From the sequence record NC_024784.1: a DNA stretch of 46,440 nt. One strand, given 5' to 3'. How positions within the stretch are numbered: position 1 is the first letter of the stretch; the number at the start of each line of letters is the position of its first letter. Positions 563 to 36,014 of this stretch are shown here, one piece after another. The notes below the pieces were generated by a model. The model had not been told where the DNA came from. It saw only the letters and a list, made by a program, of their open reading frames with translations, and made no database searches. This DNA comes from Escherichia phage vB_EcoS_AHS24. The position numbers and the translations under genes are program-made.

Positions 563-1077
563 TGTTAGATAGAGCGAAGCCTATGCCGCCTCTGGATTTT
601 CTTAGAGGAATTCTGAGTTACAATCCTGAAACGGGAAAGCTAACGTGGACATCAAAAGTAAGTAGCAAAACCATAATCGGATCCGAGGCTGGGACTTTGC
701 ACAAAGCTAGCGGTCGATATCAAGTACAGATACAAGGGAAGATATACAAGAGCTCAAGGATTGCATTTTATTTGTATTATGGCTTTGAGCCAGTTGGCGC
801 GGTTGACCACATAAATCGTGACCCATCAGACGATAGGATTTCTAATCTTAGGGATGCATCGCTTAGCCAAAACGGAATGAATAAGTCTATGATGAGCAAT
901 AATACATCTGGCTACAAAGGTGTTAGCTACTCAAAGAGAAGGAATGAGTATATTGCATATGTGAAAATAAATGGAAAAATGATGTTTGGAGGTTGGTTTA
1001 AGAAAAAAGAAGAAGCAGCAAAGGTGGCGGCATCAATGAGAGAGAGTATACATGGGGAGTTCTGCAATCATGAGTGA
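562..1077 (+). CDS. HNH homing endonuclease (HNH + AP2-like domain)
   Basis: HINRDPSDDRISNLR HNH-type motif; paralogous to ORF 24664..25137; inserted between terminase subunits; ORF track start 550 is GTG, ATG at 562 preferred. Confidence 0.7.
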   Translation: MLDRAKPMPPLDFLRGILSYNPETGKLTWTSKVSSKTIIGSEAGTLHKASGRYQVQIQGKIYKSSRIAFYLYYGFEPVGAVDHINRDPSDDRISNLRDASLSQNGMNKSMMSNNTSGYKGVSYSKRRNEYIAYVKINGKMMFGGWFKKKEEAAKVAASMRESIHGEFCNHE

Positions 1078-2641
1078 AATAATTGTATGGGAAGACTTAA
1101 CATACCCAGAAAAGCTAGCTATAAAGGCACTATCAACTCATAGCTTCGAGGGTTTCTTAAGGGTGTGGTTTCAAATAAGTCAATCTGAGCGTTATATTCC
1201 TAACTGGCACCATAAGTACCTCTGTAGAATCATCGATGAGGTTATTAGCGGTCAACGCAGAGATACAATCATTAACGTAGCTCCCGGGGCCGGAAAAACC
1301 GAGATTACATCCATTCACTTCCCAGTATACTCAATGCTTAAACTAAAGAAGGTTCGCAATCTTAGCCTGTCATTCTCAGATAGCCTCGTGAAGCGTAACT
1401 CTAAACGGGTTCGTGACCTTATCAAATCGACAGAATTCCAGGAGTTGTGGCCCTGCAAGTTTGGCACATGTAAGGATGATGAGATTCAGGTTCTTGATGA
1501 TTCTGGTAAGGTTAAGTTTGAATCAATATCAAAAGCAATTGGCGGTCAGATTACAGGCGCTCGCGGTGGATATATTACAGATAACTATAGCGGCTGTTTG
1601 ATGCTTGATGATGTAGACAAAGCGGATGATATGTTCAGCAAAGTCAGGCGAGAGGCCGTGCACACTCTTCTCAAAAACACCATTCGCTCACGTAGGGCGA
1701 GTAGCGTTAAAGGTAAAGCTACGCCAATTCTGTCAATTCAGCAAAGGCTTCATACTCAGGATTCAACGTGGTTCATGACTTCTGGTGGTATGGGTATCGA
1801 CTTTGATGTAGTGAAGATACCGGCGCTGGTCACTGAAGAATATGTGAATGAACTCCCTGACTGGATTCGTGAGCAGTTCGAGAAGGACGTGCTTTCATCC
1901 GAGTACGTCGAGCGAGATGGTGTTAAGTATTACAGCTACTTCCCGCAGAAGGAATCTGTGCATGACTTGATGGCAATGTGGGACTCAGATCCGTACACAT
2001 TCCTAAGCCAGTACCAACAATCTCCAGTAGCTCTGGGTGGAAACCTGATCAACGTAGATTGGTTTGCTCGCCTCGATGAGAATAACAGGCCGCCAGTCAA
2101 GTATGACTACCGTTTCATTACGGCTGATACTGCCATGACCACTAAGAGTTATAGCGACTACTCAGTATTCCAGCTATGGGGGCGCAAAGATAACAGGCTT
2201 TATCTTCTGGATATGGTAAGGGGTAAATGGGAAGCACCTGAACTTGAGCAAACTCTTCTGGACTTTGAGAGTAAGCATAGAGCAGCTAGTAAGACAGATG
2301 GTATATTGCGCAAGGTTATTATCGAGAAGAAAGCGTCTGGAATAGGACTTATCCAGTCGGCGGGTCGGGTAATGCGAACTCCTATCGAGCCTTTCGTTCC
2401 AGATACAGATAAGTTAACCAGGGTGATGAGCGCACTGCCACAGATTAAAGCTGGTAACGTAGTTCTGCCTGACTCTGCGCCATGGCTTACCTCGCTATTA
2501 ACCGAGTTCTCGGCGTTCACTGCTGACGATTCTCATCCCCATGATGACATTGTGGATACGACAACAATGGCCATCAACTGTGAATTGAACTTGAGTGACG
2601 ATCCGAGAGCCCGCTTAATGAGGCTAGCTGGCGTTAAGTAA
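1052..2641 (+). CDS. terminase large subunit
   Basis: 529 aa; Walker A-like VAPGAGKTE; acidic nuclease-type C-terminus; alternative start ATG 1070 overlapping HNH stop. Confidence 0.85.
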   Translation: MGSSAIMSEIIVWEDLTYPEKLAIKALSTHSFEGFLRVWFQISQSERYIPNWHHKYLCRIIDEVISGQRRDTIINVAPGAGKTEITSIHFPVYSMLKLKKVRNLSLSFSDSLVKRNSKRVRDLIKSTEFQELWPCKFGTCKDDEIQVLDDSGKVKFESISKAIGGQITGARGGYITDNYSGCLMLDDVDKADDMFSKVRREAVHTLLKNTIRSRRASSVKGKATPILSIQQRLHTQDSTWFMTSGGMGIDFDVVKIPALVTEEYVNELPDWIREQFEKDVLSSEYVERDGVKYYSYFPQKESVHDLMAMWDSDPYTFLSQYQQSPVALGGNLINVDWFARLDENNRPPVKYDYRFITADTAMTTKSYSDYSVFQLWGRKDNRLYLLDMVRGKWEAPELEQTLLDFESKHRAASKTDGILRKVIIEKKASGIGLIQSAGRVMRTPIEPFVPDTDKLTRVMSALPQIKAGNVVLPDSAPWLTSLLTEFSAFTADDSHPHDDIVDTTTMAINCELNLSDDPRARLMRLAGVK

Positions 2642-14753: not shown

Positions 14754-15104
14754 ATGGCATTAGAAACATTTCGCTGGTGTACTCAGGTTCAGGGCGGCTC
14801 AGCGAGCTTCACTAACGCGAATAACGTTAGGGTTGTTAGCTTTGGTAATGGTTATGAGCAAAGGGGAACTGGAGGTTACAGAACCAACAAACGCACTTAC
14901 AACATGACCTACACCAACACCAACTGGAAGGAAGTGTTAGACTTTTGTTTTGCACATATCATCACCCCGTTCGCATGGACGACTCCGCAGGGTGAGCTTA
15001 AGCTTTTTGTTGTTGCTCAGGACAGCATCAGCGTCACACCGAATACCAGGGAAGTGCAGACTGTATCAATGCAGTTTGTAGAAGTTTTCACCTCAATGCA
15101 GTAA
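14754..15104 (+). CDS. minor tail protein (lambda M-like)
   Basis: 116 aa immediately after tape measure. Confidence 0.55.
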   Translation: MALETFRWCTQVQGGSASFTNANNVRVVSFGNGYEQRGTGGYRTNKRTYNMTYTNTNWKEVLDFCFAHIITPFAWTTPQGELKLFVVAQDSISVTPNTREVQTVSMQFVEVFTSMQ

Positions 15105-15148
15105 ATAGCACGAATTGCTAAAGACAAAACTCAAGGATGAGTTATTAT
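15103..15148 (+). promoter_or_regulatory. promoter cassette copy (motif + 22 bp + TATTAT)
   Basis: AAATAGCACGAATTGCTAAA at 15103..15122; leader TTCATCGAGACGAGA follows; upstream of moron 15204. Confidence 0.6.
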
Positions 15149-15203
15149 GTATTCATCGAGACGAGATCGATAAACAAACAAAACAAACAACGAGGATTTA
15201 AAC

Positions 15204-15398
15204 ATGACTAACTTCCCTAAAGCTCAATTCGTACTGGTTTTCTTCCACAACGGCAAGCCTTTCGCAGAGACGATTGATAACACTGGTGATACACCAATGG
15301 TATACACTGGATACCATGACGTGTGGAATGAGCTTTCAGATGAGGATATTTCTTATTACACATCTAAAGCATCAAAAATTATCACTAGTGAAGATTGA
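15204..15398 (+). CDS. hypothetical protein (moron in tail module)
   Basis: 64 aa with own promoter cassette upstream and terminator downstream. Confidence 0.5.
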   Translation: MTNFPKAQFVLVFFHNGKPFAETIDNTGDTPMVYTGYHDVWNELSDEDISYYTSKASKIITSED

Positions 15399-15417
15399 TG
15401 TAAATTGAGATAAACTA

Positions 15418-15438
15418 AGACCCTACTGGGTCTTTTTA
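15418..15438 (+). terminator. intrinsic terminator
   Basis: AGACCC-tact-GGGTCT + T-run, after moron. Confidence 0.7.
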
Positions 15439-15451
15439 TTGGAGAAATATT

Positions 15452-16219
15452 ATGGCAACGCCATTAAGCACTAAGTTCGAGAATCAATTACAAAGCTTGT
15501 TCCCTGGTGAGGTTGTCACGTTGATTGAGGTTGACGGAGGAAAGTTTGGTGCACCAGTTTACCGCTTTCATGGGGAGAATATCAGCTATACCCCAGAAGA
15601 AATCATGATGGCGCAATCAACAGGCCAGCCCCTGCCAGCAAAGACAATTACTTTCCGTGGCGAAGAGTACGGCGCAAGGCCTTTTGGAATTCAGGGTATT
15701 AACATGACTTCTGACGGCAAGGCAAACAAGGTGACTCTGGTTGTATCCAACGTTGACCAGAACATCTCGGCGCTTATCCGCGCTTACAACGGACTTGTTC
15801 AAGCAAAGGTTACTATCTGGATCACGCTTCGCGAGAATATTAATGAAGATGGCACCATTGCTGATGGGGATTATCGCAAGCTGGTTTACTTCATCGAACG
15901 ACCTAAGCAGGTAGATTACAATACGGCGTCGTTTGAACTAACTAGCCCAATGGATATGGATGGTATTTACATTCCAGCACGACTGGTTCAGTCAGTTTGT
16001 TATTGGGCGCAGAGAGGACTTTACCGCTCAGGGAATGGATGTGACTATATGGGTGATAGGTATTTTGATAAAGACAACGTGCCTGTATCTGATCCATCAC
16101 AAGACTTTTGTGCCGGGACGGTTAGCGCTTGCCGGTTAAGGTTTGGTGAGAATAACCAACTATCATTTGGGGGTTGCGCTGCTGCAAGCCTGCAAGCGAA
16201 AGCCAACCAACAGACTTAA
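15452..16219 (+). CDS. minor tail protein (lambda L-like)
   Basis: 255 aa, synteny M-L-K-I-J. Confidence 0.6.
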   Translation: MATPLSTKFENQLQSLFPGEVVTLIEVDGGKFGAPVYRFHGENISYTPEEIMMAQSTGQPLPAKTITFRGEEYGARPFGIQGINMTSDGKANKVTLVVSNVDQNISALIRAYNGLVQAKVTIWITLRENINEDGTIADGDYRKLVYFIERPKQVDYNTASFELTSPMDMDGIYIPARLVQSVCYWAQRGLYRSGNGCDYMGDRYFDKDNVPVSDPSQDFCAGTVSACRLRFGENNQLSFGGCAAASLQAKANQQT

Positions 16220-21020: not shown

Positions 21021-21992
21021 TTAGTAGAAGTTGGGAATAAATGGAAGTGCCATTGATATGTTTGTATCAAATGGGAATTGCGCGCCAGTTTGAGTTGAAT
21101 AGTTACCTATAACAGTGCCTGGGACGGCTCTAACTGAACCTCCAGACATGCAAACACCCTTGTATCGTAAGTTATTATATCCACCAGTGACTCTAGTTGT
21201 CGCTCCGCATCTAAGTATTGGGAAGAACCCACCATTCACCGACTGGTAACCATTATTAATCTGCATAAATCCACTTAGAACAAATGGCCTCCTGACGCTA
21301 GAGAAAACTATCTGCCCAGCGCTGTTTGATATCGTTAAACCCGGACCAGCTACTGGAGGTGTATTATTGAAAATAACTAACTGAACGTAAGTACTTGCAG
21401 CAACATCATCAATCCCATTGTATGTTATATCCCTACACCATATCGTACTACCATCACTTTCAAGGGATACGTTTGGGTTATCCCATTTACCAAAAGGAAT
21501 GCCGCCAACTGGCAATGATGCAGAGCCATTAACCTGAATGCCACCAACCCAAGCAGCAGTCATTAATCTGGAATTGCTTGATATCGCTGTAAAGTCAGTC
21601 GAGTTCTCAACAAGGACACCGGGGATTGATTGTGATGATGCTGGTAAAATCTCAAAGCACTGACCGCCAAACTGCAATATGCGACCATTAGCGCCGTTAA
21701 AGTTACTTAATGTAATCCTTCCAACCCCATCGTTAACCTTCGAGAACCCATTCATGTAATAAACTTCTGGTATAACATCATATGCATCAACATAAACAGC
21801 CTGAGTTGGCAGGCAGAATGCTGTTGAGCCAGGAGTCATAGTCAAACCGAAATCCCATGATGATGCTGGTGAGCTTAACCCGATAGTGTTTATTGAACCA
21901 GTCACGGCTGGAACTCTCAAGCCAGCTGTGATTTCCATTGCTGGCCTTCCGTCATTCAAATCTATCAAGATACCTTGAGGCATTATTTCCAC
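21021..21992 (-). CDS. receptor-binding protein (putative)
   Basis: 323 aa reverse-strand ORF downstream of J-like gene, translationally coupled to upstream lipoprotein gene. Confidence 0.45.
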
Positions 21993-22226
21993 TCCTTTGA
22001 GCCGTGATCTGCAACTGAGCCGCCGTAGCCTCCACCAACCTTTTGCTCAATACCAGCATAACGAATATCAACCTCTCCAGCTGGAACAACTACGCCACCC
22101 TTCCATTTAGCTACGCATACACCAGAGGCCTGAGTTGCACACCATCCGTCAGGTCGCGGGCCAGAAGAACAACCTACTGTCATGATTACTGCTGCTGCGA
22201 TGATTGCTGATTTGATGAAGTTAGTC
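21983..22226 (-). CDS. lipoprotein, putative superinfection-exclusion (Cor/Llp-like)
   Basis: Signal peptide [20 protein letters not shown] with Cys at lipobox position; 81 aa from ATG 22226 with AAGGAA RBS; ORF track extends to 22303. Confidence 0.55.
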
Positions 22227-22267
22227 ATTTTGTATTCCTTAGTAAGTATGTTTCGTTTCGATGGAGT

Positions 22268-22314
22268 AACTATAGCAAAGGCTGCCGCGGTAGTCTTTAG
22301 CAAATCGTGCTATT
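22268..22314 (-). promoter_or_regulatory. promoter cassette copy (minus strand)
   Basis: Minus-strand AAATAGCACGATTTGCTAAAG, 23-bp spacer, TATAGTTAC, leader TCCATCGAAACGAAAC; upstream of lipoprotein/RBP operon. Confidence 0.6.
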
Positions 22315-22816: not shown

Positions 22817-23446
22817 ATGAATCTGATGAATATTGATGAAAACGTAACCATGAGTAGCCTTGAGATTGCTGAATTAACTGGAAAGGAACACTTTATAGTA
22901 CTAAGGGATATTAGGGATATGCTTAATAGGCAGTTTGGTGATGGAGGAGAATACAAATTTGTATCCTCCTACAAATCAAGCCAGAACAAGGATTTACCAA
23001 TGTATAACCTAAAATTCAGGGAAACGATGATTTTGATGGCTGGTTATAGCCAGGAAATTGCTGCCAGAATCATTGACCGCTGGCTTCACCTTGAGCGGGA
23101 GAACAAGTTACTCAAAGAGCACATGGCCAAGATGGTATCTTACGATCTGGTATTAAAAGAGAAGCAGCAAACCAACAAGGAGCTATCGGCACGCAATCGC
23201 GCCGAAGATGAGGTTTACAAGCTAGAGAAGATTATTTATAAGTATATTGATAAGGCTTCAAATGGTGAAGAGATTCACGATGAGCTTTATAAGGTTAAAT
23301 TTGAATCTAGCAGGCTCTTTGATGCTCTTGAGATGGTTTACTCATATCAATCTCAGTGTGAAATTCTTTGCCAGAAGTTAAACGACAAGGATGAGTTGAT
23401 CTCTAATCTGGTAGATAAGAATAGCGAGATTATTAAGTTGAAATAA
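22817..23446 (+). CDS. Rha-like phage regulatory protein
   Basis: N-terminal SSLEIAELTGKEHFIVLRDIRDML resembles Rha-family signature; coiled-coil C-terminus. Confidence 0.5.
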   Translation: MNLMNIDENVTMSSLEIAELTGKEHFIVLRDIRDMLNRQFGDGGEYKFVSSYKSSQNKDLPMYNLKFRETMILMAGYSQEIAARIIDRWLHLERENKLLKEHMAKMVSYDLVLKEKQQTNKELSARNRAEDEVYKLEKIIYKYIDKASNGEEIHDELYKVKFESSRLFDALEMVYSYQSQCEILCQKLNDKDELISNLVDKNSEIIKLK

Positions 23447-25137: not shown

Positions 25138-25182
25138 TATAGCACGAATAGCTAAAACAAGATTAAATAGGTGAGGTATAGT
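25137..25182 (+). promoter_or_regulatory. promoter cassette copy
   Basis: ATATAGCACGAATAGCTAAA + 22 bp + TATAGTTAC + leader ATCGACAACGAGAGG; upstream of Erf/SSB. Confidence 0.6.
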
Positions 25183-25209
25183 TACCTAATCGACAACGAG
25201 AGGAAAAGT

Positions 25210-30133: not shown

Positions 30134-30607
30134 TTACTCTTTAGCTTTTCGTGCTTCTTCTCTTTCTTTCTTAACCTTTCGCCATGATTTACGCTGCGGC
30201 TTGGTTGCTAACTCAGCTTCTGTAACAACTCGAAGCATCTGACGCTTCTTGCATCGCAGTGTTAGAGGCTTGCCGTTACCGTCGAACTGTAAATCAGGTC
30301 GGCAGAATGTAGCCCTGAACCCCTCGCCAGTTCGCTTATATCGATTATGCGCAAGCTGTGCGCCGCGAGCTGAAATCATTCCCCGCTTACACCATTCTTC
30401 TACAGCCTGGCGCGTAACCTTTAGCTGCTTAGCTAGATTGGCCTTGCTGCCGTAGAAGTCCAAGACAATCTCAAGGCGCGCCCTTAATCCTGCTCTCACC
30501 TCATCCTTTAGTACATAGTAACCTGATGGACGCTTACGCGGCTTCTTGTCTTCTGTGCGAATTGTTCCGTTGTTACCATTAAGAGTACGCTTGTCAATTG
30601 AATCCAT
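30134..30607 (-). CDS. HTH DNA-binding protein (putative transcriptional regulator)
   Basis: LAKQLKVTRQAVEEW helix-turn-helix-like segment; basic C-terminus. Confidence 0.5.
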   Translation of the reverse strand: MDSIDKRTLNGNNGTIRTEDKKPRKRPSGYYVLKDEVRAGLRARLEIVLDFYGSKANLAKQLKVTRQAVEEWCKRGMISARGAQLAHNRYKRTGEGFRATFCRPDLQFDGNGKPLTLRCKKRQMLRVVTEAELATKPQRKSWRKVKKEREEARKAKE

Positions 30608-35938: not shown

Positions 35939-35981
35939 ATAGCACGAATTGCTAAAACGAAAATCAAAAGATGGGGTATAG
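35936..35981 (+). promoter_or_regulatory. promoter cassette copy
   Basis: AAATAGCACGAATTGCTAAA + 22 bp + TATAGTTAC within hairpin GATGGGG/CCCCATC + leader AAACGAGAGGA. Confidence 0.65.
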
Positions 35982-36014
35982 TTACCCCATCTAAACAAAC
36001 GAGAGGATACAAAG

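Follow-up and report, generated by a model that had tools for sequence, protein, structure and literature searches.

A small open reading frame (ORF) sits between two tail genes of the Escherichia phage AHP24, with promoter-like sequence in front of it and a hairpin behind, and the locus raises the question of whether an accessory unit has been inserted into the late operon and, if so, what exactly was inserted. An earlier note had read it as a moron, an autonomous unit with its own promoter cassette and terminator. We address the question in the window, by which we mean the whole stretch of DNA analysed, 46,440 nt in length; the AHP24 region is 100% identical to KF771236.1 (Rogunavirus, Drexlerviridae, T1-like), and a window position equals the position in that record plus 1. 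The ORF is indeed present between an M-like and an L-like gene, as claimed, and matches to PF05939 and PF05100 confirm the two flanks. The features of the slot are as follows:

14754..15104, plus strand: gene for a minor tail protein similar to lambda M (PF05939, E=1.3e-18; phrog_14), annotated as AHP24_19; left border of the slot
15105..15413, plus strand: insert of 309 nt relative to phages with an empty slot, delimited by alignment with empty junctions
15204..15398, plus strand: 64-aa ORF (AHP24_20, phrog_24631) with an ATG start, annotated in KF771236.1 as 'hypothetical protein' with no similarity note
15417..15441, plus strand: terminator-like hairpin and T-tract in the M/L intergenic region, resident, identified by folding and in relatives with an empty slot
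15452..16219, plus strand: gene for a tail-tip protein similar to lambda L (tail protein L, PF05100, E=5.4e-45; phrog_18); right border of the slot

The insertion is evident from an alignment of the stretch between the M stop and the L start, in which nine relatives were compared with AHP24. In AHP42, JK06, AKS96, Opt-79 and EB49, the junction runs from CAGTAA straight into ACTAAGACCCTACGGGGTCTTTTTTATTGGAG and on to the ATG, and 309 nt split the same two sequences in AHP24: empty sites read CAGTAA followed by ACTAAGACCC, and AHP24 reads CAGTAA, then ATAGCAC...GAGATAA and then ACTAAGACCC. The left edge of the insert is the M-like stop codon and the right edge the M/L hairpin, with an ambiguity of 3–4 nt since TAAA is present at both junctions. 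Presence or absence in related phages had been suggested as a check, and the unit is missing from most of them; the junction there contains the hairpin and measures 39–46 nt in AHP42, JK06, AKS96, Opt-79, Sd1 and EB49 and 30–103 nt in about 40 further relatives, compared with 347 nt in AHP24 and 321–351 nt in relatives with a filled slot. Nor is the ORF conserved in all relatives as a standing part of the tail operon. Among the roughly 40 viral and metagenomic relatives, the exceptions to the short gap are the filled slots and two contigs with an HNH gene after the hairpin. The insert also differs in composition, its G+C content of 36.2% comparing with 46.4% in M, 47.0% in L and 43.8% in the window; this places it 8–10 points under its tail neighbours and in the bottom 2.3% of 309-nt windows.

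Public genomes give the same picture of a rarely filled slot. In INPHARED, 530 records match the M-L region, and in 11 of these the match extends over 80% or more of the query (AHP24, two Sf12 and eight with a second kind of ORF); the sampled records with both M and L aligned all span 1,129–1,156 nt, as an empty junction does. The AHP24 kind of ORF, hereafter type A, is found there in two distinct phages and the second kind, type B, in five; scanning viral contigs with the M protein revealed no further slot types.

The downstream end of the unit has to be redrawn. The ORF had been described as bracketed by an intrinsic terminator, and a hairpin, AAGACCC-TACT-GGGTCTT at 15417..15434 followed by TTTATT, is present at that site (folding energy -14.6 kcal/mol, z=-3.5), but it did not arrive with the inserted DNA. 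An identical hairpin lies 3 nt past the M stop in the empty-slot phages AHP42, JK06, AKS96, Opt-79 and EB49, and because insert-free phages have it right after the M stop, it belongs to the tail operon as a resident element and is not the terminator of the insert. Distant relatives, metagenomic ones included, also have a hairpin at the M/L junction (L004, L006-L010, L027, L029, L032, L039), and since they keep it with a different stem sequence, it appears to be a conserved structural element of the junction; its sequence diverges with the backbone, not with the cassette.

The history of the inserted part differs from that of its surroundings, as seen in comparisons with two divergent relatives:

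AHP24 and L012: leader 93% identical; ORF 86% identical, dS 0.35; M and L 66–70% identical, dS 2.0 for M and not computable for L
AHP24 and L013: leader 90% identical; ORF 89% identical, dS 0.21; M and L 70–72% identical, dS not computable

High identity begins at the M stop codon and ends at that of the ORF. C119 and JK06, whose backbones are nearest to AHP24 (87–89% identity in M and L), carry a different cassette or none, and L011 is a mosaic that joins an Sf12-like header to an AHP24-like ORF. The low dS of the cassette beside the saturated dS of M and L indicates that the header-plus-ORF unit has been exchanged horizontally between divergent backbones.

The second occupant of the slot, type B, is a 71-aa ORF (phrog_29402) found in C119, phiKP26, UDF157lw, BECP10 and Rogue1 as well as in some metagenomic contigs, and its header has the same composition of direct repeat, 22-nt spacer and -10-like hexamer. 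Two representatives are:

L003, 1978..2193: type-B ORF of C119, 71 aa
L005, 1978..2109: type-B ORF of Rogue1, frameshifted

As the Rogue1 copy is frameshifted and most relatives have no slot ORF, the slot gene is probably dispensable. The model of type B is small and six-stranded (pLDDT 87). Four GenBank records label this ORF 'tailspike sialidase', for which we found no support, its only match being phrog_29402 (unknown function); the label looks like an annotation error. Types A and B share an ELSDE..SY motif (BLASTP E=0.003, hhalign E=0.0066) within a central pattern N.G.T...Y......ELSDE..SY, 13/33 identical, which spans 15279..15356 of the window (ORF residues 26–51) and 2029..2106 of L003; among the ORFs of the window, the best match of type B is type A (E=0.15). 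The predicted folds of the two differ and a fold search with type B does not return type A, and the likeness may represent either distant homology or convergence.

These observations bear on the possibility that nothing was acquired and that the ORF belonged to the tail operon from the start, being inherited vertically, expressed with its neighbours, possibly as an accessory of tail-tip assembly or host range, and lost in most lineages. All known copies of the 64-aa ORF are indeed in the M-L slot, in at least three divergent backbones, and the occurrence of type B, with its shared motif, in the same slot of other phages would suit such a scenario. Yet the discordance between the phylogenies of cassette and flanks disfavours vertical inheritance: dS in the cassette is 0.2–0.35 in the two comparisons in which the flanks are saturated, and the phages whose M and L genes are closest lack the ORF. 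The deviating G+C content, the unlike folds of types A and B, and a type of header otherwise confined to the non-structural region are further evidence against it, and we regard this scenario as improbable.

One may also ask whether the ORF is a gene at all, or a chance or decaying frame in DNA duplicated from elsewhere in the genome. Only about five variants are known, the family has no annotation, and the related occupant of the slot is broken by a frameshift in Rogue1, all of which could be expected of such a frame. However, the ORF is exactly 64 codons long and free of frameshifts in all five variants (AHP24, Sf12 and three metagenomic ones), with dN/dS of 0.16–0.48 at dS up to 1.2, and its Shine–Dalgarno sequence and start context are invariant. 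The window contains no paralogue or donor copy of it, and the AF2 model, built from a 4-sequence alignment, is compact (pLDDT 77) and beta-rich, with four strands, a helix and a short strand. The substitution pattern shows the ORF to be in all likelihood a real gene under purifying selection, and a spurious frame is very improbable.

What drives its expression is less obvious. The DNA upstream of the ORF is organised as follows:

15103..15123, plus strand: 21-nt direct repeat of the T1 family, 'G' subgroup, aaATAGCACgaaTTGCTAAAg, found by repeat search and comparison with the published TLS consensus
15106..15120, plus strand: palindrome TAGCA-N5-TGCTA within the direct repeat
15143..15148, plus strand: -10-like hexamer TATTAT, 22 nt past the palindrome
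15152..15166, plus strand: conserved block TTCATCGAGACGAGA, the TTCATCGAAACGA-like block that follows the hexamer
15172..15196, plus strand: A/C-rich, (AAAC)n-like leader, ending in the Shine–Dalgarno sequence GAGGA 7 nt before the ATG
22312 (minus), 25140, 30621, 33017, 33702, 34388, 35940, 40012 (minus), 40210 (minus), 41172 (minus), 42007 (minus), 43669 and 44512: further header copies of the same layout
35676: degenerate copy of the repeat that lacks the hexamer, found in the layout search

In phage TLS, a 21-nt direct repeat, aaATAGCACnnnTTGnTAAAA, precedes start codons by about 76 nt and points along the direction of transcription; its middle triplet defines A, T and G subgroups. The repeat occurs also in T1, Rtp and Rogue1 and may according to the authors be a stoperator, an enhancer-binding site or a UP element, the choice being left open (PMC11447400). 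The repeat of the insert, aaATAGCACgaaTTGcTAAAg, fits this consensus except for the last base and has GAA as its middle triplet, which places it in the 'G' subgroup. It is intergenic, has the same orientation as the ORF and begins about 100 nt upstream of the ATG, differing from the TLS repeats in this distance and in its place inside the late tail operon; the distance is longer because of the extended A/C-rich leader. Neither the AHP24 genome paper nor the GenBank record mentions the repeat, none of the header copies is annotated in KF771236.1, and a literature search for transcript maps of T1-like phages returned nothing beyond the TLS paper.

Within AHP24, the 21-mer ATAGCACGAATTGCTAAAGAC has eight matches in the window with at most three mismatches, against an expectation of zero, and 14 copies of the header follow one layout: the palindrome TAGCAC-N3-TTGCTA, 22±1 nt of spacer, TAnnnT, 3 nt, a TTCATCGAAACGA-like block, a ribosome-binding site and ATG. 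The hexamer is mostly TATAGT or TATATT, and the block matches closely in about half of the 14 copies and more loosely in the others. The copy at 15106 is the sole one in the structural region; the other 13 lie at 22–45 kb, before non-structural genes (small ORFs, recombination and helicase genes, and a lipoprotein gene). The first 75 nt or so of the insert match other sites in AHP24 and about 100 related phages. A motif CAAGGATG is found in many of the header spacers.

The promoter cassette that the earlier note had placed at 15103..15148 is in this sense substantiated as a conserved, promoter-like header from a 14-copy family, and a vague guess has turned into membership in a defined, published and functionally unexplained family of repeats; generic sigma-70 matches, in contrast, are not enriched above chance in the region. 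The best match is AAGACA-16-TATTAT (9/12), with 19 regional matches against 21.8 expected; TATTAT is good as a -10-like hexamer, the -35 candidate AAGACA agrees at 4/6 positions at a distance of 16 nt, TTGCTA at 22 nt upstream is too far, and no canonical -35 hexamer is found at 17 nt from TATTAT. Conservation among relatives gives more information. In the six type-A cassettes, the direct repeat is nearly invariant, TATTAT, TTCATCGA and ACGAGGAT are invariant, and the spacer before the hexamer is only about 58–60% conserved; preservation of these elements across a diverging spacer is the pattern expected of a functional promoter followed by translation signals.

The header could still be something other than a promoter, namely a regulatory or stop element or a structural element of RNA or DNA, in which case the ORF would be transcribed only with the late tail operon and would be accessory without being autonomous. 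The role of stoperator listed for the TLS repeat would agree with this, as would the generic promoter scan and the 22-nt distance from palindrome to hexamer, which misfits a -35/-10 pair; in several copies, moreover, inverted repeats surround the hexamer. Against it speak the TAnnnT hexamer, which 14 of 15 copies have at a fixed 21–23 nt past the palindrome, in a pattern of conserved elements around a variable spacer that a promoter would produce, and the orientation of the copies, which lie on both strands and always point in the direction of the next gene. An Rfam search gave no match, and hairpins are inconsistent, some copies having none. We therefore see this as a possible, though distinctly less probable, alternative to a promoter.

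As to structure, inverted repeats or hairpins occur near the hexamer in several copies (regions 35940..36000, 43669..43730, 25140..25200 and 15130..15160) and can put the -10-like hexamer in the hairpin loop (z=-7.2 at 35940, -4.5 at 43669); in the remaining copies it lies in the spacer or is missing. Such structures could represent operators, a DNA or RNA structure, or chance. A hairpin consistent across the 14 repeat copies was rejected, as it is strong in some and absent in others, and so was a conserved RNA structure in the leader, for which AHP24 gives z=-0.87 and a strong hairpin is seen only in the Sf12 version. The unusually long A/C-rich leader to which the earlier note had drawn attention is real (15172..15195): from hexamer to ATG, the insert has 55 nt, and the other 13 copies 27–40 nt. 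It is predicted to be unpaired, and the length of its A/C tract differs among the six type-A cassettes (alignment columns 90–120), with ACGAGGAT invariant; such (AAAC)n microsatellite-like behaviour suggests slippage and possibly a tuning of translation efficiency.

Two window genes may be relevant to the palindrome. A protein of the Rha regulatory family is encoded at 22817..23446 on the plus strand (PF09669, above the Pfam cutoff), and the product of 30134..30607 on the minus strand has a weak Cro/YdaS-like match that scores 24.3 bits and misses the cutoff of about 30; both are obvious candidates for binding TAGCA-N5-TGCTA. The lipoprotein gene behind one of the headers (21983..22228, minus strand; PF24052, E=2e-38) lies downstream of the tail fibre gene with its repeat at 22293..22313 on the minus strand and may be of the superinfection-exclusion type; it has the first 12 nt, ATGACTAACTTC (MTNF), in common with the 64-aa ORF, possibly by chance.

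Similarity searches yield no clue to what the product of the ORF does. A direct count gives it 10 acidic and 4 basic residues, and inspection by eye shows no run of hydrophobic residues of the length that a signal peptide or membrane span would need. Its sole family match is phrog_24631 (unknown function), which consists of the few relatives of this ORF; there was no Pfam hit above the curated cutoff and nothing in NCBIfam or PADLOC. The PDB contained nothing below E=0.06 by sequence and nothing at E<=0.001 by fold, and Foldseek matches in BFVD were all uncharacterised small phage proteins. An exhaustive HMMER search of 1.8 billion representatives returned its own family and repeat proteins; the latter, of the ankyrin, LRR and DUF11 types, match through short IDNTGDT-like motifs and were judged spurious.

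Taken together, we find it somewhat favoured that the insert is a moron-like accessory cassette, in which a promoter-like module with the direct repeat is followed by an unstructured A/C-rich leader and the 64-aa ORF, placed between the M stop and the resident hairpin. The header would then be a promoter for the host RNA polymerase, with the transcript presumed to start in the conserved block at 15152..15166. If the hexamer is the -10 element, the 15-bp palindrome is centred near -42 and could serve as a regulator-binding site; class II activators use this position. The ORF would be expressed with the early or middle, non-structural class of genes and in addition by late read-through from M, and the resident hairpin would stop or attenuate its transcript, so that a promoter of the early type could safely sit in this slot within a late operon. 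The product would be a small, acidic and soluble protein, dispensable for tail assembly; given a dispensable gene, an early-type header, a protein of this kind and a patchy distribution, our best guess is that it most likely acts on a component of the host or its defence and is not part of the virion. The location of all copies in a single slot could, on the other hand, point to a tail-linked function.

Insertion, lower G+C and a history discordant with the flanks thus bear out the moron reading, and the terminator, which was not brought in, does not. In the classical sense of a gene expressed from a prophage, the term is inapplicable to AHP24, because the phage is described as lytic and T1-like (PMC4070988) and has no prophage from which to express the gene.

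Morons of lambdoid phages were reportedly described by Juhala et al. in 2000, with examples such as lom, bor and, within the tail gene cluster, HK97 gene 15. Like them, the insert is extra DNA between genes that are adjacent in relatives, with a promoter-like element upstream and a terminator downstream, a deviant base composition and a patchy, discordant distribution. Unlike them, it resides in a virulent phage, its terminator pre-existed at the site, and its header is the repeated module of the phage family itself and not a foreign sigma-70 promoter. In TLS, from which the repeat is known, the M-L junction is empty.

Another parallel is with the 'transcriptons' of T1 (Roberts et al. 2004), late modules that, as recounted in PMC11447400, are bounded by rho-independent terminators. 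The late region of AHP24 is similarly punctuated by hairpins, and the cassette and the resident hairpin together make up a promoter-gene-terminator module, but this module arose when DNA was inserted in front of a terminator already in place, and only a minority of relatives have it. We counted 20 terminator-like hairpins across the late region where 10.6 would be expected, which agrees with the transcripton picture.

The ORF itself was already annotated and the repeat published; what is new is the link between the two, the exact anatomy of the insert, with the inserted header, leader and ORF now separated from the pre-existing terminator, and the evidence for horizontal exchange. If the repeat is a promoter or regulator site, its only late-operon copy amounts to a natural experiment on its role. 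AHP24 is among the phages studied for the control of E. coli O157:H7, and its 64-aa protein is a candidate factor for host interaction or anti-defence. A broader and rather doubtful extension would make repeat-headed small-ORF units a general currency of accessory-gene exchange in T1-like phages, with late-operon sites in front of terminators as insulated landing sites and the 64-aa protein as an early host-takeover or anti-defence factor in a few lineages.

The cassette is not the only optional gene in this part of the genome. The tail-tip cluster is a hotspot for single-gene insertions, and HNH homing endonuclease genes occur as optional single genes at the M-L-K-I junctions of relatives; in contrast to these, the 64-aa ORF encodes no nuclease or other recognisable domain, and the HNH genes are inserted past the M/L hairpin or in the L/K junction, whereas the AHP24 cassette precedes the hairpin. 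HNH genes near the tail-tip genes were seen at L002 3082..3378, L004 2780..3268, L011 4084..4569, L010 1022..1501, L041 ~965..1480 and L043 ~996..1495, and they lie before M, between L and K, or in the gap from the hairpin to L; the gene before M in L010 (EB49) is unnamed in GenBank and appears as an HNH endonuclease in RefSeq.
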